Shown: in pieces, positions 1,215 through 25,597 of the stretch
How the letters are laid out: each line of letters opens with the position of its first letter
How positions within the stretch are numbered: the first letter of the stretch is position 1
IMG/VR virus record: IMGVR_UViG_3300042923_000692
Span: 1 to 26,708 of that record
Length of the DNA stretch: 26,708 nucleotides
Strand: one strand, 5' to 3'
Origin: a virus
Lineage: Duplodnaviria; Heunggongvirae; Uroviricota; Caudoviricetes
Notes under the pieces: generated by a model
The model's input: only the letters and a program-made list of their open reading frames with translations
Database searches by the model: none
What the model was told of the DNA's origin: nothing
Position numbers and translations under genes: made by a program

Positions 1215-3998
1215 TCACTTGAGTGCGTCGTTGAGGGTGGAGGCGGGTACTCCAAGCATGTCAGCAATCTCACTCTGAGGATAGCCATTAGCCTCCAGCT
1301 GTCGAGCACGGAGGATCTTAGCATCACTCATAACAGTACGCTCACGAGGGGTAGCCAGTTGACGTACCTGATCCATGTCAGCATTCTGTAGGATAGCTGT
1401 CAGCTTGTTGGTAGTGATAGCACCTGCCTGGATGGCATCCCATTCACGCTGTGTGAACGTGATTACTTCCTTGCCTGCACCAACACGGGCTCTAGCCTCA
1501 TTAAGCGCTAGAGCCTTCTCCTTCTTGAGATCATCCTTGTCCATGTCAGGGTTTGCCTGCTTACGGGCCTGGATCATAGTGTTGGCTAGCAGCTGAGCTT
1601 GCCTCTCACGAGGAGCATTCATCTGTGCTGTACGCAGCTTGGCGTTGAGGGTACCCACTTCTTCGGCATAGGTCTTTCTAGCGGACTCGCTATAGAGACG
1701 GGGCTTAGTAAGGATGTACTCTTTACGGGCTGCGTTAGCAAGGGACTTCATCTTGTTGGCGTGATCTGCATAAACGTTCTCAATAGGAGTGTTCCTATCA
1801 GAGATCAGCGAACGTGCATCCTCAGCCTCGTCCATCTTAGTAGAACGGGACTGCTTACGCACAGTGGACACAGTCTCTACACCAGTACGCTTGTTCACCT
1901 TAGTGACCGTATACTCTTTACCGGTGGGGGTATGAATCCGCTTTCCGGTAGCAGGGTCTACGTTGCGTGTAGTGAGAGTGGTAGCATCCTTACGCTCGTC
2001 TACATACTGCGTAGACTTAGCCTTAGAGATGAGTGTAGAAGCGCCGGCCTTGGGGCCGCCCTGATATTTAGTCTTTAGCTCAGAGATGTTGTTGTCTAGA
2101 GCCGACTGACGGAAGTTGAGGTTGTGCTTTTCAGCATCGATTACAACCATCGAATGACGCACCGCACGAGCAATCTCGTTGTCGTTTGCGCCCTTGATCG
2201 TCATATCAGTGATGAGATTCGAGATGTCACCCATCTGCTTCTGCTTACCCTTAGGCGTGAGCCCATTGGGGCGATCCATCTTGTAGGTCGTCTGAGGATC
2301 GAAGTTCTTCAGACCAGCAAGGGAACCCTTTGTCTTGACACTCTTGTTGTTGTTCGGGATTACCAGGACGGTGTCGCCGTCGAAGTCAGCTCCAGAAAGG
2401 CGAGCAGCAACCCTAGAGTTAATGCCAACCGCATCCGCTGCATTTTTGATAACACGATTCGCCTCTCTGTTGCGGTTATTAACCACCAGCTCAGGAATCT
2501 CGAATATACCACCATGGGGATGGCGAACGAGAACTACGGTTTCACCATCACGATAGTTAGGTGCGTAGATTTCGTTATCCTTCAGACTGTTGATCGGAAG
2601 AATAACCTGATTCCTTGTGCGAGGGAGACCTGCGGCTTTGAGATGCTTAGCCGAAGAATCCGCGCCATCGGCGAACTCCTTGAGGAGCTGCTTCTTGACT
2701 GCCGGATTGGATAGTGCCATGATCTCGTCGAATTCAGACTTCTTAGCATCATACGAGAGACCGAGCTGCTTCTTGGCCAGAGCCGGAGGCTGCTTAGAAA
2801 GCATCTGGCTGGAGAGGGTGCGAGACCACTCGTTCCAACCGCCTTCTTCACCAGATATCCGACCTTCTGTTCCAACGATGTTGATAGGCGACAGGTGCTT
2901 CTTGCCCTTAGCGTCTGTATATTCACGCTGACGAACAATAGAACCGAAGGGGAGGACTTCGTCCACCTCGCCAGTCTGCTTGTTCTTCTTAATGGGCTTC
3001 ATAGCAGCGAGCTTGTCGTCACCGATATCCGCACGCTTCTTGTTGGTGTTGAACATCATGTCGACGCCAGGCGGGAAGTCCTTGTCGTCTCCATACATCG
3101 CCATACCCTTAAGGTAGTGCGTGCCGTTCACACCGATTCGAACCTGTGCATACTGTGCTCCACCAAGGGAGATATCATCAACTCCTCGACGAAGCTGAAT
3201 GACACCATCCATATCCGCGCCGCCTTCTTCAGCGTAACGGACACCGACACGCTTAGTGTCGACATGCTGGGGAGGCTTAGTTGGAATCCACGAACGTCCG
3301 CCATCTTCGCTGTGACCAGTGACAGAACGAATCTTATCCTGGTTCTTCATGACGTCGGGGAAGGTAGTTCCAGGAGGAGCCAGAACCATTGTGTTGGTGT
3401 TCTTTCCTGTGCCCAGCTGTTGGACAGGAACGTAGAAGACTTTGTAGCCTTCCTCTTCCAACGCAGCGATTGCTACTTTCTTCTTGGACTCGGCAATACC
3501 GAGATGAGCCTCAGTACCCTTACCGATGTCAAGATATCCATCATCGCCGAGCATGCGCTTAAGCTCGCCGGCAGTAGCCATGATGATATCGTTGCGCTCA
3601 CGAAGCGAAGGGTTAAGAAGGGAGCGAACCGAAGATTCCGGAATACCCATCTGCTTACCGATCGCAACATTGGACATGCCCTTGTTGCGCAGGTTGATGG
3701 CGTTGGTGATATCGGCTTCGCGATTCTGGGACTTGGCGATAGCCTTCAGTGCACGGATATCCGAAGACGAAGCGCGAGGGTTGTCGGGAAAGATCGCCTT
3801 AGCAATCTCAGCCTCAGACATACCACCCTTGGCCATGTCGTCCACATACTGAAGGAATCCCTTGTTGCGCTGGTAAGGTGTTTCACCAGAACCCCAAGGA
3901 TAACGACCGGACTTACGAAGAACTCCTTCGTGAGAGAGTTCTCCATTCTCTGAACGCTCAGCGAAGAGACGGTCAAAGAGATCAAGCGAGGTTTCCAT
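1215..3998 (-). CDS. Single-subunit two-barrel (DPBB) RNA polymerase candidate, RdRP/YonO-like, with N- and C-terminal HTH domains
   Basis: RLSGADFDGDTVLVIP (D538-D542, nt 2373-2387); VLVRHP (R492); AQVRIG...YLKGMA (Q285/R287/K297); HTH-like segments at ~aa 99-128 and at the C-terminus (YPQSEIADMLGVPASTL); RBS AAAGGG. Confidence 0.82.
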   Translation of the reverse strand: METSLDLFDRLFAERSENGELSHEGVLRKSGRYPWGSGETPYQRNKGFLQYVDDMAKGGMSEAEIAKAIFPDNPRASSSDIRALKAIAKSQNREADITNAINLRNKGMSNVAIGKQMGIPESSVRSLLNPSLRERNDIIMATAGELKRMLGDDGYLDIGKGTEAHLGIAESKKKVAIAALEEEGYKVFYVPVQQLGTGKNTNTMVLAPPGTTFPDVMKNQDKIRSVTGHSEDGGRSWIPTKPPQHVDTKRVGVRYAEEGGADMDGVIQLRRGVDDISLGGAQYAQVRIGVNGTHYLKGMAMYGDDKDFPPGVDMMFNTNKKRADIGDDKLAAMKPIKKNKQTGEVDEVLPFGSIVRQREYTDAKGKKHLSPINIVGTEGRISGEEGGWNEWSRTLSSQMLSKQPPALAKKQLGLSYDAKKSEFDEIMALSNPAVKKQLLKEFADGADSSAKHLKAAGLPRTRNQVILPINSLKDNEIYAPNYRDGETVVLVRHPHGGIFEIPELVVNNRNREANRVIKNAADAVGINSRVAARLSGADFDGDTVLVIPNNNKSVKTKGSLAGLKNFDPQTTYKMDRPNGLTPKGKQKQMGDISNLITDMTIKGANDNEIARAVRHSMVVIDAEKHNLNFRQSALDNNISELKTKYQGGPKAGASTLISKAKSTQYVDERKDATTLTTRNVDPATGKRIHTPTGKEYTVTKVNKRTGVETVSTVRKQSRSTKMDEAEDARSLISDRNTPIENVYADHANKMKSLANAARKEYILTKPRLYSESARKTYAEEVGTLNAKLRTAQMNAPRERQAQLLANTMIQARKQANPDMDKDDLKKEKALALNEARARVGAGKEVITFTQREWDAIQAGAITTNKLTAILQNADMDQVRQLATPRERTVMSDAKILRARQLEANGYPQSEIADMLGVPASTLNDALK

Positions 3999-4101: not shown

Positions 4102-4749
4102 CTACTTCTTCTTAGAACGAATCCGAAGTTCCCTATCGATTTCATGAACCTGAAGACTGTTGTTGGCGGCTTTGATACCCTTGATTTCGGAAACCATGAT
4201 CTTTCCACCGATAGCACCAAGTACTGCGACGGTAGTCATTTGACCCTGTCTCTGAAGAGCCGGGCTTCCTCCTGCAAGTTTGAGAGCGCCCATTGTACCG
4301 ATCATGGCCACACCAAGTCCAACACTCTGTCCGATCAGAGCCTTTCGAATGGCTCGACTCTTATCGGTAGGCCTCTCCAAAGCATATATCTTCATACGCT
4401 CGCTGGATGTGAGCAGTCCGTATTCAGACTTCTCTTTGATACCTTGATCGTCCAACTTCATTGCTATCTTTTGAGACTTAGACAGCTTCACGCCAGCCGA
4501 GGCGTTAAAGAAGATATCATTGCCGTCGGCGTTCTTAAGCCTGTTCTGAAGTTTGGCTTTGGCTGCCTGTAGTTCTGGAGTGGTCATTTTCGACCACTTA
4601 GTATCTTCAGTAGCTAGGCGATTCTTAAGCTTGTCGTAATTAGCGGCTCGAGATTTCTCAAGCTGAGCAGTCTTACGCTCAATCTTACGCTTTCCCCACT
4701 TCATACCCTTAACGCCAAAGTGGGCGAGAAAGTCATCCACATCGGTCAT
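4102..4749 (-). CDS. Phage protein with N-terminal LAHFGVKGMKWG motif and two C-terminal hydrophobic segments
   Basis: 215-aa ORF with RBS AAGG; motif typical of this phage lineage (recalled). Confidence 0.75.
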   Translation of the reverse strand: MTDVDDFLAHFGVKGMKWGKRKIERKTAQLEKSRAANYDKLKNRLATEDTKWSKMTTPELQAAKAKLQNRLKNADGNDIFFNASAGVKLSKSQKIAMKLDDQGIKEKSEYGLLTSSERMKIYALERPTDKSRAIRKALIGQSVGLGVAMIGTMGALKLAGGSPALQRQGQMTTVAVLGAIGGKIMVSEIKGIKAANNSLQVHEIDRELRIRSKKK

Positions 4750-5738: not shown

Positions 5739-5770
5739 TCCTTTCATTATAGCACGTGTGTTATTCGCTA
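5739..5770 (-). promoter_or_regulatory. Conserved phage promoter copy (class B, TATAAT-GAAAGG)
   Basis: TAGC-GAATAACACACGTGC-TATAAT-GAAAGGAG; degenerate second copy with -10 at 5825-5830. Confidence 0.6.
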
Positions 5771-6200
5771 CCCATAAAAGTGACCAAAGTTGCGAATGTT
5801 ACAAGTGTTCTCTAGCGAGATGGGATTATATAGCATGCGTAAATTGCGCTACCCACAAAAGTGACCCATTTGGTCAATTGGCCATTTATTTGGGCAAAAT
5901 CCATTAGCTCCTGGAAAAGCCCATTTTAACTACTTTCATCAAATCTATAAAAAAAAGTGACCATTTGACCATTACCCATAAAAGTGACCAAGAAAACCGC
6001 GTAATTCCGGGGTTTTTGGGCCTTAAAATCGTGGCCACTTTTGATTTCAGATTTGACCATTTGGCCACTTATTTGACCAAAACGACCTTTCGCGACGAGG
6101 CCGACCAAAATTTTCAATTTCAGATTTGACCATTTGACCGGATTTGACCGAGATTTTATGGGTAGTTTTGTCCTTTTTTTGGGCCACTTTTTGGCCATAA
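5769..6200. repeat. AT-rich iteron-like region; candidate replication origin
   Basis: TACCCAYAAAAGTGACC at 5769, 5850 and 5973; inverted GGCCACTTTT at 6033 and 6182; ATTTGACC at 5963, 6051, 6071, 6124, 6132 and 6142; no credible gene. Confidence 0.6.
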
Positions 6201-6228
6201 TCAGCCGTCCGATCGACTTATACGATCC

Positions 6229-6370
6229 CAAATGACCACCCATGTCCCACCCATGACGCCCCCAAACCACCACCATGACACCCACATGACCACCAATCTA
6301 CGGCTACGCAGCATCGAAAATGCCAATTTTTTCATAGCCCACATCGTCGCGTATCCTCCATGACCACCCA
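6229..6370. repeat. C/A-skewed short repeats ATG(A/T)C-C/A-rich
   Basis: ATGACC/CATGTC/CATGAC at ~6232, 6241, 6252, 6274, 6285 and 6359. Confidence 0.55.
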
Positions 6371-6377
6371 AAATGCC

Positions 6378-6401
6378 AAGAAGAAAGCCTCCGTAGAGGC
6401 C
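6378..6401 (-). terminator. Intrinsic terminator
   Basis: GGCCTC-TACG-GAGGCT-TTCTTCTT directly after the stop at 6410. Confidence 0.7.
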
Positions 6402-7268: not shown

Positions 7269-7460
7269 TTACTTCTCTTCGTGGTTGATCTTGGCCATAC
7301 GTTCTTCGTGCTCGTATCGCATCTTCTGCTGCTTGAGGAGCTGACGGTTGTGAACGTAGTTGTTGATGGTTCCGTGGAACGGAATTCCGAAGAACAATAC
7401 GTATGCACCGAGAGTGCCGGCAGCAGCGACGATGATCGTCTGCTTGGTGGTTGAATCCAT
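7269..7460 (-). CDS. Small membrane cassette protein (63 aa)
   Basis: One hydrophobic helix plus charged tail; RBS GAAAGGA; own promoter. Confidence 0.75.
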   Translation of the reverse strand: MDSTTKQTIIVAAAGTLGAYVLFFGIPFHGTINNYVHNRQLLKQQKMRYEHEERMAKINHEEK

Positions 7461-7480
7461 GGTGATGATTCCTTTCAGAG

Positions 7481-7512
7481 GGGTGTCATTATATGCCTTG
7501 TGATTAGTGCGA
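7481..7512 (-). promoter_or_regulatory. Conserved phage promoter (class A)
   Basis: TCGC-ACTAATCACAAGGCA-TATAAT-GACACCC. Confidence 0.8.
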
Positions 7513-7539
7513 AAAAGAGAAAGGCCCAGGTTAGGGCCC
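7511..7539 (-). terminator. Cassette-boundary terminator fused to promoter
   Basis: GGGCCC-TAACCT-GGGCC-TTTCTCTTTTT running directly into TCGC. Confidence 0.65.
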
Positions 7540-7545
7540 GGCTCT

Positions 7546-7755
7546 TTACAGAGTGATGGGGATTTCGATCAGTTCAAAGCTGAACTTGGGCGGGACGCCG
7601 ATGAATTTGTCTGGTCCGAATCCGTCGGTGGGACTGAGCCACAGCAGCACCTTCTCCTGTTCGTTGTCGAATGTGGAGTTGATGACGTGGTGGGTCTCAC
7701 CTTGGAATCGGATGGTGTTCATCCAAACGACGTCCTGAGCTTCAACATGTTTCAT
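7546..7755 (-). CDS. Hypothetical cassette protein (69 aa)
   Basis: RBS GAAAGGA; flanked by promoter and terminator. Confidence 0.72.
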   Translation of the reverse strand: MKHVEAQDVVWMNTIRFQGETHHVINSTFDNEQEKVLLWLSPTDGFGPDKFIGVPPKFSFELIEIPITL

Positions 7756-7772
7756 GATTGATGTCCTTTCGG

Positions 7773-7804
7773 GGGTGTCGTTATAGCACTTGTGAAATGT
7801 GCGA
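7773..7804 (-). promoter_or_regulatory. Conserved phage promoter (class A)
   Basis: TCGC-ACATTTCACAAGTGC-TATAAC-GACACCC. Confidence 0.78.
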
Positions 7805-7834
7805 AAAAGAGAAAGGCCCGCAGTTAATGCGAGC
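7803..7834 (-). terminator. Cassette-boundary terminator
   Basis: GCTCGC-ATTAACT-GCGGGC-CTTTCTCTTTTT. Confidence 0.7.
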
Positions 7835-7842
7835 GAAACTCT

Positions 7843-7983
7843 TTACTTCTTGGGCTTGTAACCTTTACCGTTGAATGCGACGTCGAAGGCGTGCTGCGTG
7901 ATCGCCTTGATTCCGATGGTCGCGCCGATGGTGGCAGCGACGGTGACGGGGATGGCGATGGCAAGAGCCTGCTTGGTGTTCAT
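7843..7983 (-). CDS. 46-aa membrane cassette protein (not in track)
   Basis: MNTKQALAIAIPVTVAATIGATIGIKAITQHAFDVAFNGKGYKPKK; RBS AAAGGA. Confidence 0.75.
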   Translation of the reverse strand: MNTKQALAIAIPVTVAATIGATIGIKAITQHAFDVAFNGKGYKPKK

Positions 7984-8008
7984 TTCAATTCCTTTGGTTG
8001 TGTGCTTG

Positions 8009-8040
8009 GGGTGTCATTATAGGCCCTGTGATTCGTGCGA
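8009..8040 (-). promoter_or_regulatory. Conserved phage promoter (class A)
   Basis: TCGC-ACGAATCACAGGGCC-TATAAT-GACACCC. Confidence 0.8.
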
Positions 8041-8070
8041 AAAAGAGAAAGGCCCGCTAGATATGCGAGC
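8040..8070 (-). terminator. Cassette-boundary terminator
   Basis: GCTCGC-ATATCTA-GCGGGC-CTTTCTCTTTTT. Confidence 0.7.
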
Positions 8071-8079
8071 GATCCTCTT

Positions 8080-8379
8080 TTACTGCTTTGCCGTGAGGAT
8101 GTACTTGGGTCCGGCGAAAGACCGCTTCCATACGAGTTCAGCGTCGTAGTGCTTGGCGACTTCCTCAGGGGACAAGACGTAGTACATTTCGATCGTCGAC
8201 AGATACGGCCGAGGACCAGGGACTATCGAGTCAACGCTGATGTTGACGTATGTGATGTAGTCCCCGACTTTCGGGGTTCTGTTGTGATGCCTGTGTACCA
8301 AGATCTTGGGATCCTGGAGGAAGTTCGTCCAGTACTCGAGGCTGTTTCGCGTGACGCGGTGTGCTTCGGGCTTGAACAT
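8080..8379 (-). CDS. Hypothetical cassette protein (99 aa)
   Basis: RBS AAGGAG; own promoter and terminator. Confidence 0.75.
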   Translation of the reverse strand: MFKPEAHRVTRNSLEYWTNFLQDPKILVHRHHNRTPKVGDYITYVNISVDSIVPGPRPYLSTIEMYYVLSPEEVAKHYDAELVWKRSFAGPKYILTAKQ

Positions 8380-8402
8380 TGGGTCTCCTTGGTAGGTAAA
8401 GT

Positions 8403-8434
8403 GGGTGTCACTATAGCCCTTGTGATATATGCGA
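8403..8434 (-). promoter_or_regulatory. Conserved phage promoter (class A)
   Basis: TCGC-ATATATCACAAGGGC-TATAGT-GACACCC. Confidence 0.78.
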
Positions 8435-8468
8435 AAAACAGAAAGGCCCGCGGATTAGGCGAGCTTTT
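8433..8468 (-). terminator. Cassette-boundary terminator
   Basis: AAAAGCTCGC-CTAATCC-GCGGGCCTTT-CTGTTTTT. Confidence 0.7.
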
Positions 8469-8473
8469 CTGAT

Positions 8474-8704
8474 CTACTTCTTCTTGCTGGTGAGCTTCTT
8501 CCAGAGGGGTCGGTCGGCGAGGATACGCTGGTGACGGGCTTCGTAGCAGATCTTCGTGATCAGCGTGTAGTTCTCGAGCAGGTCGTCGAACTGGTCCGTG
8601 GTGGTGGACGGGTTCGAGATCGCTGCGCGGAACATGTTCGCTGCCAGAGTCATTGCTGCCTGCTCGTCTTGAGTGTAAGGCGCAACCTTCTTCTTGTTGG
8701 GCAT
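8474..8704 (-). CDS. Hypothetical cassette protein (76 aa, helical, basic termini)
   Basis: RBS GAAAGGA; own promoter and terminator. Confidence 0.75.
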   Translation of the reverse strand: MPNKKKVAPYTQDEQAAMTLAANMFRAAISNPSTTTDQFDDLLENYTLITKICYEARHQRILADRPLWKKLTSKKK

Positions 8705-8723
8705 GATGCTTTCCTTTCAGAGG

Positions 8724-8755
8724 GGGTGTCATTATAGGAGCTGTGATTCTTGCGA
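8724..8755 (-). promoter_or_regulatory. Conserved phage promoter (class A)
   Basis: TCGC-AAGAATCACAGCTCC-TATAAT-GACACCC. Confidence 0.8.
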
Positions 8756-8777
8756 AAAAGAAAGGCTCCGAAGAGCC
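8754..8777 (-). terminator. Cassette-boundary terminator with UUCG tetraloop
   Basis: GGCTC-TTCG-GAGCC-TTTCTTTTT. Confidence 0.78.
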
Positions 8778-8783
8778 CCTCTC

Positions 8784-9035
8784 TTACTTCCGGAAAAGCT
8801 TCTTCCAGAATGGCTTGGGGGGATTGCTCCTGTACTCTTGGATGCGCACGATCTTCTCATCCAACCACTCGATGTCGTCCAGATATTCGTTGTACTCACG
8901 AAGCTGTTCGTCAGTCGGGTCGACGTCATTAGCTTTGAGTACCGCGAAGATCTCTTCGTGTGCCTCGGTGGCGCGGATGAGGAGAGACATGCGTTCGATC
9001 AAGAGTTGGAGGTGTTTTTCCTTCTTGCCAAACAT
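8784..9035 (-). CDS. Hypothetical coiled-coil cassette protein (83 aa)
   Basis: Start reassigned to ATG 9035 (RBS GAAAGGA): MFGKKEKHLQLLIERM... Confidence 0.75.
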   Translation of the reverse strand: MFGKKEKHLQLLIERMSLLIRATEAHEEIFAVLKANDVDPTDEQLREYNEYLDDIEWLDEKIVRIQEYRSNPPKPFWKKLFRK

Positions 9036-9052
9036 AGATGTTTCCTTTCTAG

Positions 9053-9084
9053 GGGTGTCATTATATACCTTGTGATATGCGCGA
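9053..9084 (-). promoter_or_regulatory. Conserved phage promoter (class A)
   Basis: TCGC-GCATATCACAAGGTA-TATAAT-GACACCC. Confidence 0.8.
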
Positions 9085-9131
9085 AAAAGGGAAAGCCCCT
9101 GCCAGATCCGCGAAGACCTGGCAGGGGCTTT
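9083..9131 (-). terminator. Strong terminator ending the long operon
   Basis: Perfect 14-bp IR AAAGCCCCTGCCAG (9092-9105) / CTGGCAGGGGCTTT (9118-9131) plus U-tract. Confidence 0.8.
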
Positions 9132-16267: not shown

Positions 16268-16528
16268 TTACTCCTCCATACTCTCTATGAACATGCTCCA
16301 TACCCAGTCTCCGAGCATGATGTTAGCCACAACCGCAATGGCTAGGTATATCAGGTTAGTGGCGATCGTTCCGGCGAACTGCCAGCACCAAGCCCACGTG
16401 CGACGTTCGATCTTTCCCCAGGTCACCTCATCCACCCAGGTGTAAAGGATAAGCGCCAGAATGAAGACGTCGAACAGGAACAGACCGGCGGTGGTGATCA
16501 ACGCCAATATCAGAAGCCCGACCTCCAT
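16268..16528 (-). CDS. Two-TM membrane protein (86 aa)
   Basis: Two long hydrophobic helices; RBS AAGGAGG; TAATG overlap. Confidence 0.7.
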   Translation of the reverse strand: MEVGLLILALITTAGLFLFDVFILALILYTWVDEVTWGKIERRTWAWCWQFAGTIATNLIYLAIAVVANIMLGDWVWSMFIESMEE

Positions 16529-17547
16529 TAATCCTCCTTGTGAGTGTTACGACGGTGGGCCTCGAACTGCAGATTGAACGTCACACGATCCTTGGTGACG
16601 GTTGCGTTTCGCTGAGAGGTGTGGACTCGCCAAAGCCAGTCATCGCCATATCCTTCACCGAAGACATTCTCGAACACGGCGCTATCGACGACGCTGCGCA
16701 GCAGGTGCTCACGTGCATCCTCGAGCTCTTCCAGCATGTACTCGACAAGGAGCTCGCGATCGTTCAACGCCTTCTTGAGATGACGGCGTACGGTCGACTC
16801 ACTGACCCCTAGCGTCTTCCCGATGGATACGTTGCTCTCACCCTTGCGCTTCAGCTGACGCATCCGCAGGACCAGAGATGAAACGCTGCTGGTAACCACC
16901 ACAGGCTCAGGAAGAGTGTTCGTCTGCACCGTGGTGATGGTACGACGACTCGGCCGGCCCTTGGTGGTTACCTCGTTGGATCCCAGCATGTAGATGTTGG
17001 CACGATTCTCATAGACCTGCGGGAAGGTCCAGTCGTTCGGAGCGAGTACCCTCACCGTAGTCGATCCAACCTTGATGTAGAACTTCTTGTATCCTCGCTC
17101 AGCAAGAAGCTCGACCGCCTGGATGAGAGTCGACACGGACACCCCCAGAACCGGGAGAATTGCCGGACCCACATTCAGCAGAGAGTGCTTCTTCAGTTCG
17201 GTCTCGAGGCGATCAGCGACGATTTCGTACTTGTGCATGGTGTCCCTTCGAATCGTATGGGTCTTTCCCGTCGTGCTCTTCAACATCTTGATTCCGACGG
17301 TGCGATCCTCGAGCAGGGCACGAACCGTCGACTCGGTCTTACCCATGACCTTTGCGATCTCTTTGTTGGAATATGCCTGCACCTTGAGGCTCTTCGCTCG
17401 ACGGACGTCCTTCTTGCGCTGCGCCGCCTTGGCGATGGCGGTCTGAGCTCGTTCTTCGGAAATGGTCATTTCTTCTCCTTTGGGATGTTGGTGGTCGTAA
17501 ACGTCCATGTCTTTCACCGCACGTTTACACGTGTCGCAGTAGAACAT
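16528..17547 (-). CDS. Multi-HTH DNA-binding protein, paralogous to the RNA polymerase N-terminus
   Basis: YSNKEIAKVMGKTESTVRALL and ESNVSIGKTLGVSESTVRRHL HTHs; GYKKFY...VLAP...TFPQV segment matches RNAP; alternative start ATG 17469. Confidence 0.8.
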   Translation of the reverse strand: MFYCDTCKRAVKDMDVYDHQHPKGEEMTISEERAQTAIAKAAQRKKDVRRAKSLKVQAYSNKEIAKVMGKTESTVRALLEDRTVGIKMLKSTTGKTHTIRRDTMHKYEIVADRLETELKKHSLLNVGPAILPVLGVSVSTLIQAVELLAERGYKKFYIKVGSTTVRVLAPNDWTFPQVYENRANIYMLGSNEVTTKGRPSRRTITTVQTNTLPEPVVVTSSVSSLVLRMRQLKRKGESNVSIGKTLGVSESTVRRHLKKALNDRELLVEYMLEELEDAREHLLRSVVDSAVFENVFGEGYGDDWLWRVHTSQRNATVTKDRVTFNLQFEAHRRNTHKED

Positions 17548-22929: not shown

Positions 22930-22947
22930 TACCCATAAAAGTGACCA
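22930..22947 (+). repeat. Isolated exact copy of the 18-bp iteron-like motif
   Basis: TACCCATAAAAGTGACCA, identical to 5769-5786 and 5973-5990. Confidence 0.8.
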
Positions 22948-22980
22948 GAAAAAGAAAGGCCCGCGTGTTAGGCGAGCTTT
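22948..22980 (-). terminator. Cassette-type terminator
   Basis: AAAGCTCGC-CTAACAC-GCGGGCCTTT-CTTTTT; same family as 7803, 8040 and 8433. Confidence 0.72.
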
Positions 22981-22990
22981 TCTTTACATC

Positions 22991-23230
22991 TCAGATGAGA
23001 TCGTAGGGATCGAGTCGGGTGAGCGCTTCGACTTCGGTGGCCATCTGCATGCCGTCGATGAGCGGTTCGAACATAGAGATCATCTGGTCAACAGTCTGCT
23101 CCAACTGTTCCCTCTTGACGAGGTGCGAGTTGTGCTGAATGTACTTCCAGTTCTCCATGTTTGCCTTCGCCATGGCGAGGGAATGCATGAGGTCCTTGAT
23201 GTCGTCTTTGCTCATGTCGTCAAATGCCAT
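22991..23230 (-). CDS. Hypothetical cassette protein (79 aa, helical)
   Basis: RBS GAAAGGA; own promoter and terminator. Confidence 0.75.
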   Translation of the reverse strand: MAFDDMSKDDIKDLMHSLAMAKANMENWKYIQHNSHLVKREQLEQTVDQMISMFEPLIDGMQMATEVEALTRLDPYDLI

Positions 23231-23247
23231 GAGAAATCCTTTCAGAG

Positions 23248-23279
23248 GGGTGTCATTATAGGCCCTGTGATTCTCGCGA
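23248..23279 (-). promoter_or_regulatory. Conserved phage promoter (class A)
   Basis: TCGC-GAGAATCACAGGGCC-TATAAT-GACACCC. Confidence 0.8.
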
Positions 23280-23280
23280 A

Positions 23281-23413
23281 AGACAAAAACTAAAATCGGG
23301 GATCAGTCCTCTCACGAGGGTGATCCATGAACTCGTACGGAGCACTCCGGCTTCCTTACCGGAGCGGAGGCTCCACCTGAGTGGAGAGTTCCTCCAGATG
23401 GTTCGTACGTTAT
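23281..23413 (-). ncRNA. Putative structured small RNA (~130 nt)
   Basis: Own promoter, no RBS-led ORF, three hairpins (one with a GTGA GNRA loop) enclosed by CGTACG copies, ends in a U-rich tract. Confidence 0.5.
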
Positions 23414-23444
23414 AGTTTCATTATAGCGTGTGTGATTTGTGCGA
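23413..23444 (-). promoter_or_regulatory. Conserved phage promoter (class B)
   Basis: TCGC-ACAAATCACACACGC-TATAAT-GAAAC. Confidence 0.75.
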
Positions 23445-23496
23445 TGACAGGAGTAACTTCTTTAACATTAGTCACACCAGTAACACGCGTAACAGT

Positions 23497-23542
23497 AAAA
23501 ATTGGAAGCCCCTGTCAGTCTCGCGACAGGGGCTTCCAATTT
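23497..23542 (-). terminator. Strong (possibly bidirectional) terminator
   Basis: Perfect 18-bp IR AAATTGGAAGCCCCTGTC / GACAGGGGCTTCCAATTT. Confidence 0.8.
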
Positions 23543-23841
23543 CAGTACAGAACCTGTGAGGGATCGACTCTTTCGCAGCTGAACATCACATACTTCGTGA
23601 TATAGTACGCGCCCTCATTCCCTTCCCGATACGACACCTCATAGACGCTTTCGGCATCGTCGTCGGTAGAGAATAGTCCCGTCCAGTTCTCTCCATCAAG
23701 GGAGTCCCCGATCAGACGCACCTCATCTTCAGCAATCGGATCCTCGTGGTTAAGGTCCCGAATATCCAGAAGATACTTGTGCGCGATCAGCGTGGTGGCG
23801 TCTCGACGGAGATCGTTGACGTTGAGTGATGATGTTTCCAT
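23542..23841 (-). CDS. Hypothetical acidic protein (99 aa)
   Basis: Start reassigned to ATG 23841 (TGATG overlap). Confidence 0.68.
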   Translation of the reverse strand: METSSLNVNDLRRDATTLIAHKYLLDIRDLNHEDPIAEDEVRLIGDSLDGENWTGLFSTDDDAESVYEVSYREGNEGAYYITKYVMFSCERVDPSQVLY

Positions 23842-23981
23842 CAATATACCCCCATGTCTCGGAACGGATAGCACAGATACGGTAGGCTGTGATATAGGTT
23901 GTTCGGCGGAACTACATGGAATTTTTGATCTGACAGAATCTCCAGCCCGCAGGACGAGCAGAAGATACCTTTCAGCGCCAT
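23841..23981 (-). CDS. 46-aa CxxC...H...C peptide (not in track)
   Basis: MALKGIFCSSCGLEILSDQKFHVVPPNNLYHSLPYLCYPFRDMGVY; exactly fills the gap, TGATG coupling. Confidence 0.6.
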   Translation of the reverse strand: MALKGIFCSSCGLEILSDQKFHVVPPNNLYHSLPYLCYPFRDMGVY

Positions 23982-23994
23982 AGGCGTTTCTCTG

Positions 23995-24759
23995 TCAGAC
24001 CTCGTAATATCCCATGAACGGCATTCGAACGTAGTCTAGGCCGTACCCTTCTGTTCCGTCTTCGAATACAACAGGCGTCAGGGTTACCTCGAGAGGGAAT
24101 CCGTCTGTCCAACCTAGGATTTCGCCCAGTTGAGTCGTTCGAGCACCAACACGATCGTAGAAGTAGTTCAGTGAGGCAAATCCTTCTTCCTCACACTTCA
24201 CATTGGTGTCGTCCATGGCCTTGTGTACGGTCTCATCGTCGGATCGGAACTGCTGTCCGGAGAAGACGTCGAGATATAGCGTGCCCTCAGCGTCCTTAGC
24301 GAACACGTTCGGGTTCACCACCGTCTCGCGAGCTACATCCTTGATGACTTCCTCACGAATATGAGACTCTGCGTTGAAGCCGGCGAACTCGGTGATCTTC
24401 GTCCGATACTTGGCGATGGTTCGTTCGGCCAGAGCATATGCGCCCATCAGCGTTGCTTGACGCTGCGAGCTGAGCACGGTAGCGGATATCATGCATGTGG
24501 CTGTTGCGATACCGATCGAGAGTGGAATGATGTAGTAGTGCCACGTGAATTCAGCTTCTTCAAGCCGTGTGGGGAAACGCTCTTCGAATTCCTCATTCAC
24601 GCGAACTTCGTGCTGGATATGACGTTCTGCTTGTCTCCCGGCACGATGGAAAAGGTATGCGGTTGCCCCGATACCAATGACTGAAAAGGCCGTTAGTATC
24701 GATGGCGCGTGACGATTTAGTTTCTTGGCAGCGTCACTAGCCAGTTGTGATAGTTCCAC
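23995..24759 (-). CDS. DUF6353-like conserved phage protein
   Basis: HAPSILTAFSVIG...RQATLMGAYAL...YLDVFSGQQF...SLNYFYD...GEILGW pattern (recalled); RBS AGGA. Confidence 0.7.
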   Translation of the reverse strand: MELSQLASDAAKKLNRHAPSILTAFSVIGIGATAYLFHRAGRQAERHIQHEVRVNEEFEERFPTRLEEAEFTWHYYIIPLSIGIATATCMISATVLSSQRQATLMGAYALAERTIAKYRTKITEFAGFNAESHIREEVIKDVARETVVNPNVFAKDAEGTLYLDVFSGQQFRSDDETVHKAMDDTNVKCEEEGFASLNYFYDRVGARTTQLGEILGWTDGFPLEVTLTPVVFEDGTEGYGLDYVRMPFMGYYEV

Positions 24760-24809
24760 AAGAGTTTCCTATCTTGGTCGACAAAAAAGAAAGAAGAGTC
24801 TGAGCGACT

Positions 24810-24841
24810 TCCTTTCATTATAGCCCCTGTGATTCTTGCGA
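24810..24841 (-). promoter_or_regulatory. Conserved phage promoter (class B) followed at once by hairpin + T7
   Basis: TCGC-AAGAATCACAGGGGC-TATAAT-GAAAGGAAGTC-GCTCA-GACTCTTCTTTC-TTTTTT. Confidence 0.75.
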
Positions 24842-24884
24842 AAAACGGAAGGACCTGTAGCTTTCGCTAGAGGCCCCTCCGTTT
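24840..24884 (-). terminator. Cassette-boundary terminator
   Basis: AAACGGAGGGGCCT...AGGTCCTTCCGTTTTT. Confidence 0.65.
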
Positions 24885-24887
24885 CTT

Positions 24888-25124
24888 CTACTTCTCTGCG
24901 GCGTCAGATGCCTTGGTCAAGATCTTTCCGAGGAGTCCTTCGAGGTGCGCGGCGTACGTCTCGTTCTGCTTGGTGAGGTACTGCGCGTAGTTCAGCTGCG
25001 TCGTCTTCGTGTGGTTGTAGTACACGAGGGTGACGGCGGCGAGCGTTGCGACAGTACCGCCAACGATGATGGCGAGTCCGTGCTTCTCGATGAACGATTC
25101 CTTGACGGGTTCGTTTTCGGGCAT
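24888..25124 (-). CDS. Small membrane cassette protein (78 aa)
   Basis: TM helix GLAIIVGGTVATLAAVTLVYY; RBS GAAAGGA. Confidence 0.75.
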   Translation of the reverse strand: MPENEPVKESFIEKHGLAIIVGGTVATLAAVTLVYYNHTKTTQLNYAQYLTKQNETYAAHLEGLLGKILTKASDAAEK

Positions 25125-25142
25125 AGCGATTTCCTTTCAGAT

Positions 25143-25174
25143 GGGTGTCACTATAGGCCTCGTGATTAGTGCGA
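25143..25174 (-). promoter_or_regulatory. Conserved phage promoter (class A)
   Basis: TCGC-ACTAATCACGAGGCC-TATAGT-GACACCC. Confidence 0.75.
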
Positions 25175-25597
25175 ACGAGGAATATCCGACTGAGTAAACT
25201 GCGCCACACGTTCGGCATCGTAGCTCATCTCGCCCGATCGAGTTTCAGGCTCGTTGATGGTTTCGAGATATACCTTCGGTGTTTCGGCAAGTTCTCCAGG
25301 GAAGATCTCCCACAGATGCAGAACCACCTCTCGAAGCGGAAACACAGTTCCCAAATATACCGAATGATCCAGAACCTCGAACCCAGTCCCAACAAACCAG
25401 AACGTCCGATCGACTTTCTGGAGCTGTGACTTATCCAGGTGGAACCACAACTCAACCTTTGGAAGAATTCTATGCATGGCCGCGCCCGGACCAATCTCGA
25501 CCATGCGCAGATTCAGAAATGTTGCGCCGAGAGGAATTGAGCGTTCATGCTGAAGTCCTTCATCAAGATCCAGCGTGTACTTCCATACTGTATTCAT
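25166..25597 (-). CDS. Conserved phage protein (VWKY...GTG...YLGT...VLHLWE type)
   Basis: Start reassigned to ATG 25597 (RBS AAGGAG). Confidence 0.7.
   Translation of the reverse strand: MNTVWKYTLDLDEGLQHERSIPLGATFLNLRMVEIGPGAAMHRILPKVELWFHLDKSQLQKVDRTFWFVGTGFEVLDHSVYLGTVFPLREVVLHLWEIFPGELAETPKVYLETINEPETRSGEMSYDAERVAQFTQSDIPRSH

Follow-up and report, generated by a model that had tools for sequence, protein, structure and literature searches.

A stand-alone phage protein related to the N-terminal DNA-binding module of a single-chain RNA polymerase, and the small, clade-confined family to which it belongs

The 26,708-nt stretch of DNA analysed here (the window) opens a phage record that is 95,562 bp long and carries direct terminal repeats. 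One of its genes, P0001, encodes a protein that, judged from its sequence and its structure model, is a paralogue of a single module of the RNA polymerase (RNAP, P0002) of the same phage and is not a polymerase itself, because its match to the polymerase profile phrog_4291 ends at profile position 219 of 909, its sequence has no DxDGD and its model has no barrel. This agrees with the first-pass annotation, which had described P0001 as a catalysis-less paralogue of the RNAP N-terminus encoded about 13 kb away (the spacing between the two genes is 12.5 kb). P0001 belongs to a small and undescribed family of putative accessory regulators that is confined to one phage clade; sequence comparison places the family-defining part in its second HTH and an acidic C-terminal domain, common to about 24 short proteins. 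The features of both genes are as follows.

16528..17547, minus strand: P0001 ORF; 339 aa if read from the first ATG, but probably 313 aa with M27 (~17469) as the start
17308..17457, minus strand: HTH1 of P0001 (aa 31-80), a long helix plus a sigma-region-4-like HTH; Pfam Sigma70_r4_2 and HTH_29; pI 10.3
16993..17232, minus strand: winged helix of P0001 (aa 106-185), homologue of RNAP aa 142-223; pLDDT 94-98
16774..16887, minus strand: HTH2 of P0001 (aa 221-258); Pfam Sigma70_r4, E 5e-10; near-invariant in the family
16531..16761, minus strand: acidic C-terminal domain of P0001 (aa 263-339); family-specific; pI 5.0
1215..3998, minus strand: RNAP P0002, 927 aa; GADFDGD; phrog_4291 end to end, E 0
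3345..3767, minus strand: RNAP N-terminal DNA-binding module (aa 78-218), i.e., helix, HTH, helix and winged helix; counterpart of P0001 aa 31-185

The colinear alignment that the first-pass annotation had made by eye, with peptides and coordinates that are exact, is upheld by BLASTP, which aligns P0001 residues 2-185 with RNAP 51-223 at 29% identity (E 2e-16); the further HTH copy that it had pointed out in P0001 is also found, as HTH2 (232-276) aligns with RNAP 103-147 at 42% identity (E 3e-7). The recognition helices of these two HTHs are near-identical (ESTVRRHL in HTH2 versus ESSVRSLL in the polymerase). The similarity is better than that to generic sigma-region-4 HTHs, since the winged helix alone, without any HTH (P0001 100-195), matches RNAP 142-223 with an E value of 1e-9 and 34% identity, and the phrog_4291 profile matches P0001 12-196 at 3e-23 as compared with 7e-10 for the best generic HTH PHROG. 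Likewise, when the P0001 model was compared with the AlphaFold-DB clusters, the top match was to the N-terminus (79-231) of a 936-aa protein, which is the length of the RNAP family (E 7.7e-7), followed by a generic HTH at 2e-4. The order of the structural elements in residues 78-218 of the RNAP model is the same as in P0001, and in the whole 95.5-kb genome the matches are limited to the P0001 and RNAP loci. When a profile of HTH2 and the C-terminal domain was compared with the N-terminal modules of the RNAPs using hhalign, a match of 98.7% probability (E 3e-16, 53 columns) was obtained that covers only the HTH together with half of the helix that follows it; because it is confined to this stretch, HTH2 is read from sequence as a further, though incomplete, copy of the polymerase head, and the remainder of the C-terminal domain is regarded as family-specific. 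In a tree from a short alignment, the winged helices of the family and those of 64 RNAPs part on one branch with modest support (SH-aLRT 86), and P0001 is no nearer to its own RNAP than to other RNAPs. From this separation, the duplication appears to be old, and the head of P0001 would not have been taken recently from its own polymerase.

The minus strand carries 115 of the 154 called ORFs. Translation of P0001 from M27 is likelier than from the first ATG because the M27 codon (~17469 in the window) is preceded by AAGGAG and 5 nt, M27 is the sole invariant N-terminal column in the family alignment A2, and residues 1-27 are disordered in the structure model. This model (pLDDT 78) has four folded units with disordered linkers between them. 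The three predicted DNA-binding units, i.e., HTH1, the winged helix and HTH2, are basic (pI 9.0-11.8), and the C-terminal domain has a pI of 4.6-6.8 across all 24 family members. The Pfam HTH matches fall in two stretches (aa 56-79 and aa 225-262) and score above the gathering thresholds (39.1 versus 24.1 bits for PF04545 and 36.7 versus 25.7 bits for PF08281). Sigma70_r2 and Sigma70_r3 are absent according to Pfam at E values of up to 1, and the PHROG sigma families match region 4 weakly; its region 4-like HTHs without a region 2 place P0001, as far as sequence can tell, outside the sigma factors of the sigma-70 family. The winged helix resembles only generic winged helices (TFIIIC tau138, Z 8.2; GntR-type, Z about 7), and HTH2 superposes on the HTHs of DeoR/SorC and of sigma-F region 4 with Z values of 6-7. 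The C-terminal domain is modelled as a long helix, two short helices and a long beta-hairpin; it gave no match in Pfam, the PDB (by sequence, Foldseek or VIA-align), the AlphaFold-DB clusters or the Atlas features, and the fold lists were dominated by the winged helix. The similar-looking topology of this domain raised the possibility of a degenerate second winged helix, which found no support, as the hhalign match runs no further than half of the helix following the HTH.

P0002 is a single-chain two-barrel RNA polymerase, as already predicted for this phage group; this is concluded from the end-to-end match to phrog_4291 and from a Foldseek search with its AlphaFold model (pLDDT 83, pTM 0.72), in which QDE-1 ranked first (E 1e-8), followed by the RNAPs of phages P74 (gp62) and P32 (gp64) and by plant RDR2. 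In the model, a disordered linker (229-242) lies between the DNA-binding module and the catalytic body. Single-chain RNAPs had been predicted in an actinophage supercluster and in the Lactococcus 1706 / Faecalibacterium phage group (phrog_4291), with HTH domains described at both RNAP ends along with the DxDGD motif (bioRxiv 10.1101/842583). Directly upstream of the RNAP gene (window 4102-4749, minus strand) there is a gene for a 215-aa protein with the N-terminal DUF7211 motif DDFLAHFGVKGMKWG (Pfam E 4e-14). The N-terminal consensus of the RNAP family, L.HYGT.R.SGRYPWGSG, resembles this motif by eye and has no Pfam match; if DUF7211 marked capsid-loaded proteins, the RNAP might be packaged.

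A profile search against 1.84 billion representative proteins added about 22 short proteins, 130-310 aa long and with E values from 1e-13 to 1e-125, and the family was defined as 24 clusters at 50% identity (alignments A2 and A3). Over 60 polymerases, 880-1000 aa long, align with profile positions 22-190 only, through their N-terminal heads. The RNAP-like winged helix is optional, being present in 13 of the 24 members; seven members consist of HTH2 and the C-terminal domain alone, and some others have an extra HTH. HTH2 is near-invariant in the family alignment (SNVAIG, ESTVRRRL), and the complete family motif, which P0001 also shows, includes SNVAIG..LGVSESTVRRRLK.PL, a long helix with ARE, F..VFGE and a beta-hairpin that ends in F.LEF.A. 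The RNAP has no counterpart of the acidic C-terminal domain. When the family alignments were used to search IMG/VR for loci, they picked up N-termini of RNAPs or bare HTHs and no family members; therefore, few members are present in IMG/VR. HTH regulators as such are ordinary. In the accessible parts of bioRxiv 10.1101/842583 and PMC7302621 there is no mention of a stand-alone family of polymerase heads that is restricted to one clade and accompanied by an operator-like box of its own. Other stand-alone proteins related to the head were also observed. Record G016 (L235 1803-2306, minus strand), from a related RNAP phage without the family, encodes a stand-alone winged helix of ~91 aa similar to RNAP residues 172-235, so that the polymerase head has given rise to free-standing copies of more than one kind; weak matches of the same kind were seen in G010 and G012, and P0025 has a winged helix and an HTH with a different tail.

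In all the contigs that are long enough to be judged, a family member co-resides with the RNAP, the remaining family contigs being too short for judging RNAP presence. Besides the window, these are L003, where P0004 (35% identical to P0001 and without HTH1) is encoded with the RNAP 9 kb downstream; L100, where the RNAP lies 2 kb downstream of P0021, a minimal form; and Microbacterium phage Count, with the family protein gp128 and the RNAP gp132. On the other hand, no family member was found within 10 kb of the RNAP in about 80 RNAP-bearing IMG/VR loci, nor in five complete RNAP genomes of 80-90 kb or in the isolates Streptomyces phage Kardashian and Microbacterium phage Camille. G003 and G020 are complete genomes that have the RNAP and the 33-nt repeated promoter described below and lack the family. 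Thus, to the question of whether the paralogue and the RNAP always co-occur, the answer is affirmative for the members, all of which are found with an RNAP where this can be judged, and negative for the RNAP, given G003 and G020. Since these two genomes carry both the RNAP and the repeated promoter without the family, the family is an accessory factor, and the temporal switch that had been proposed from paralogue, RNAP and promoter together is reduced to, at most, an accessory layer. In a quick RNAP tree, used for the clade of interest only because six outgroup loci entered it with a longer non-RNAP ORF, the family-bearing window, L003 and L100 group with the fragment G017 in a single, fully supported clade whose branches are very short; Count is not included in the tree, and its RNAP is 87% identical to that of the window. 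Within the family-bearing clade the polymerases are 85-89% identical. The identity of 35% between P0001 and P0004 is the lowest among the genes shared by the two phages (35-70%), the RNAP being at 85%.

The 33-nt promoter has the consensus TCGCA..AATCACA.G..CTATAATGACACCC and, in a position-weight scan, 21 copies in the genome, always on the coding strand. A strict pattern gave multiple copies in family-bearing loci only and single matches in two others; over IMG/VR, a degenerate pattern returned mostly single chance matches, and a stricter one four stretches. The position-weight scan detected arrays of the promoter in some 15 additional IMG/VR contigs; the RNAP is present in eight of their records, which include two complete genomes, and the family in none of these eight. 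These records led to rejecting the idea that the promoter tracks the family and not the RNAP; because the array records with an RNAP all lack the family, the promoter goes with the polymerase. In the cassettes at window positions 7460-9100 and 22949-25180, the promoters and the intrinsic-type terminators before them are fused, a GC hairpin being followed by a T-tract that runs directly into TCGCA. A different word, TTCAAAATGGGAG, occurs directly before start codons of the late region (genome 57581, 63965, 73745, 84150 and 91904, among others, minus strand) and, instead of being a promoter, probably extends the ribosome-binding context.

Two non-coding elements accompany the family, and both are candidate targets only.

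5769..5785, minus strand: 17-nt box GGTCACTTTTATGGGTA at the RNAP-operon promoter, with its end 17 nt upstream of the TATAAT; candidate target only
5850-5866, 5973-5989, 22930-22946 and genome 37736-37752: further copies of the 17-nt box; candidate target only
5740..6400, minus strand: repeat-rich non-coding hub of ~660 nt upstream of the RNAP operon; clade-specific; candidate target only

The box has the general form GGTCAC(TT/AA)TTATGGGTA, with five copies in the genome, seven in L003, two in L097, one in L100, two in Count and four in G017. Of the 15 promoter-bearing records searched, 14 do not have it, and the exception, G017, is a fragment of the Count-like clade. In L100, Count and G017 the box is likewise located at the RNAP-operon promoter, and it stands at the head of the operon containing the family gene in L003 and L097. 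The copy at genome 37752, which is followed after 10 nt by a ribosome-binding site and has no TATAAT promoter there, might itself be a second promoter type. The hub, which looks like an origin or a regulatory hub, contains 7 of the genome's 13 GG[TC]CAAAT words, three 17-nt boxes and repeats of the GGTGGTCATGG type; it is also found in L003 (17600-18200), L100 (10575-11404) and L245 (9485-10200), and is conserved in exactly the family-bearing genomes, i.e., the Count-like phages. Camille has neither box nor hub. Its RNAP-operon promoter region (L246 18990-19100) is homologous to that of Count, with only the GGGTAGC half of the box and with TTATGTT in place of TATAAT, which makes it a natural box-less comparator. 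Because all the genomes with family, box and hub form one clade, this co-occurrence counts as a single evolutionary event and is a lead, not a proof.

Regarding function, we consider it an even chance that P0001 is a DNA-binding transcription regulator that acts promoter-proximally at polymerase-related sites, a proposal built on its sequence and model. P0001 would be a sequence-specific DNA-binding transcription factor and not an enzyme, with three basic domains (HTH1, winged helix and HTH2) descended from the module that also forms the N-terminal head of the RNAP, and an acidic C-terminal domain that would most likely serve for oligomerisation or for contact with another protein. Its gene is in the middle of a long, tightly packed operon without repeated promoters, downstream of early-looking cassette arrays, which suggests that it is expressed after the cassettes; the protein is probably made after those of the cassette genes. 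It would then bind phage promoter-proximal DNA of the type read by the polymerase head: the sequence TCAC is common to the 33-nt promoter (ATCACA) and the 17-nt box (GGTCAC), and the near-identical recognition helices together with this common TCAC fit shared or related sites for P0001 and RNAP. By occupying or modifying promoter-proximal sites, most plausibly, P0001 would retune polymerase-dependent transcription; DNA binding, targets, timing and the sign of the effect are in this scheme predictions. In favour of a regulator are the homology with the RNAP head beyond the HTH, in which HTH2 and the next helix also take part; the confident model with the order HTH, winged helix, HTH and C-terminal domain, similar to that of RNAP residues 78-218; the basic DNA-binding domains with an acidic C-terminal domain in 24 of 24 members; the conservation of the family with its near-invariant HTH2, gp128 of the cultured lytic phage Count included; the presence of the RNAP in every judgeable contig with a member; and the box and hub found only in the Count-like clade, with the box adjoining the RNAP-operon promoter. 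Against it, family, box and hub mark one tight clade of the RNAP tree and do not count as independent support, and the RNAP and the 33-nt promoter work without the family in the complete genomes G003 and G020. In addition, the conserved HTH residues are also present in RNAPs of phages without the promoter and may be structural rather than specificity-determining, and the fast divergence of the orthologues (35% versus 85% for the RNAP) together with the domain shuffling is unusual for a core regulator.

Part of this evidence can be read differently. P0001 has the polymerase's own module, its acidic C-terminal domain resembles a protein-contact surface, its relatives occur in RNAP-encoding genomes only, and the box is similar to a compressed promoter core, 10 nt before the ribosome-binding site at genome 37752; hence the possibility that P0001 is a trans-acting polymerase subunit, i.e., a sigma-like or anti-sigma-like partner whose C-terminal domain or winged helix docks on the RNAP while the HTHs block it or redirect it to a second promoter class, such as the box sites. 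This seems unlikely to us: RNAPs that are 85-89% identical pair with members that are 35% identical and differently built, which does not suggest a co-evolving RNAP interface, and most RNAP-bearing phages have no such protein. The 660-nt hub, with its 7 of 13 GG[TC]CAAAT words and three boxes in exactly the family-bearing genomes, raises the alternative of an origin- or iteron-binding protein that acts there in replication initiation or genome organisation, as multi-winged-helix Rep proteins do; in Count and L100 the family gene is just upstream of the hub with only an HNH gene between, and P0001 has a winged helix and multiple DNA-binding domains. Nevertheless, no Rep or initiator match was obtained in Pfam, PHROGs or the PDB, the fold lists being full of generic winged helices; the minimal members have no winged helix; the distance from gene to hub is 7-10 kb in the window and L003; and all the detectable homology is to a transcription enzyme, so that we hold this role to be improbable.

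It could also be argued that P0001 is an ordinary phage HTH regulator of host or unrelated phage genes, and that its likeness to the RNAP is a trace of domain shuffling. Shuffled modular architectures and fast divergence are typical of accessory phage genes, and stand-alone winged-helix proteins (the G016 ORF) or winged-helix and HTH proteins (P0025) with other tails do exist; however, the confinement of the family to RNAP-encoding phages and a near-invariant HTH2 very close to the RNAP HTH make this explanation doubtful. Finally, the lack of any catalytic part would be expected of a functionless, decaying remnant of a duplicated RNAP gene, a reading that is highly improbable in view of the intact ORF and its confident fold, the conserved family-specific C-terminal domain that is not in the RNAP, the 24 diverged relatives, one of them in a cultured phage, and the old split from the RNAP module.

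Beyond the promoter-proximal regulator that we favour, a more specific role is conceivable, with the chances leaning clearly against it: the family could be a trans-acting specificity partner that displaces the RNAP head at the 33-nt promoters or recruits the enzyme to box-type sites. If this were true, the Count-like clade would gain a temporal switch that its relatives lack, and the family would provide the first known sigma-like or anti-sigma-like factor for single-chain two-barrel RNAPs, as well as the first such factor derived by duplication of the polymerase's own DNA-binding module. The actinophage single-chain two-barrel RNAP is a predicted enzyme, and a stand-alone head protein offers a small soluble handle on how it finds promoters: the DNA targets of P0001 can be mapped without purifying the 927-aa enzyme, and an overlap of the sites of P0001 and polymerase would identify the promoter-reading surface. 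Count is a cultured lytic relative with the family (gp128), the polymerase (gp132), the promoter and the box, so the hypothesis can be tested directly with standard phage genetics. If P0001 were only a generic regulator, the gain would be modest, i.e., one new HTH family. What is new here is the family defined by HTH2 and the C-terminal domain, the homology of HTH2 with the RNAP HTH, the confinement to one clade, and the clade-specific box and hub.

The closest known protein is gp128 of Count, a lytic phage of cluster EL (PMC7302621). Gp128 (AWN03449.1, annotated as 'DNA binding domain protein') has the same HTH2 and acidic C-terminal domain as P0001 (tblastn, 38% identity over 86% of this part, E 6e-11), and the genome of Count is like that of the window, with an RNAP 87% identical and the same 33-nt promoters, box and repeat hub. 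In contrast to P0001, gp128 has 155 aa without HTH1 and winged helix, and its visible likeness to the RNAP head is limited to the HTH. The N-terminal module of the phrog_4291 RNAPs is similar to P0001 in its colinear HTH, helix and winged helix (29-34% identity); P0001 differs from these enzymes in the lack of barrels and DxDGD, in its extra HTH and acidic C-terminal domain, and in being a stand-alone protein encoded 12.5 kb away. The accessible part of the report on these polymerases makes no mention of a stand-alone paralogue of the RNAP head (bioRxiv 10.1101/842583). Both HTHs of P0001 reach the gathering scores of the sigma-70 region 4 and LuxR-GerE HTH regulators (PF04545, PF08281, PF00196); unlike these, P0001 lacks sigma regions 2 and 3 as well as any receiver or ligand domain, and its winged helix and C-terminal domain are foreign to those families. 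In other phages, phi29 p4 and T4 MotA/AsiA are switch regulators that act at promoters of the earlier class, on the host multisubunit RNAP. To our knowledge, none of them is a paralogue of a polymerase domain, and what they have in common with the role proposed for P0001, i.e., a small post-early DNA-binding factor that would retune promoters, is a functional analogy only.
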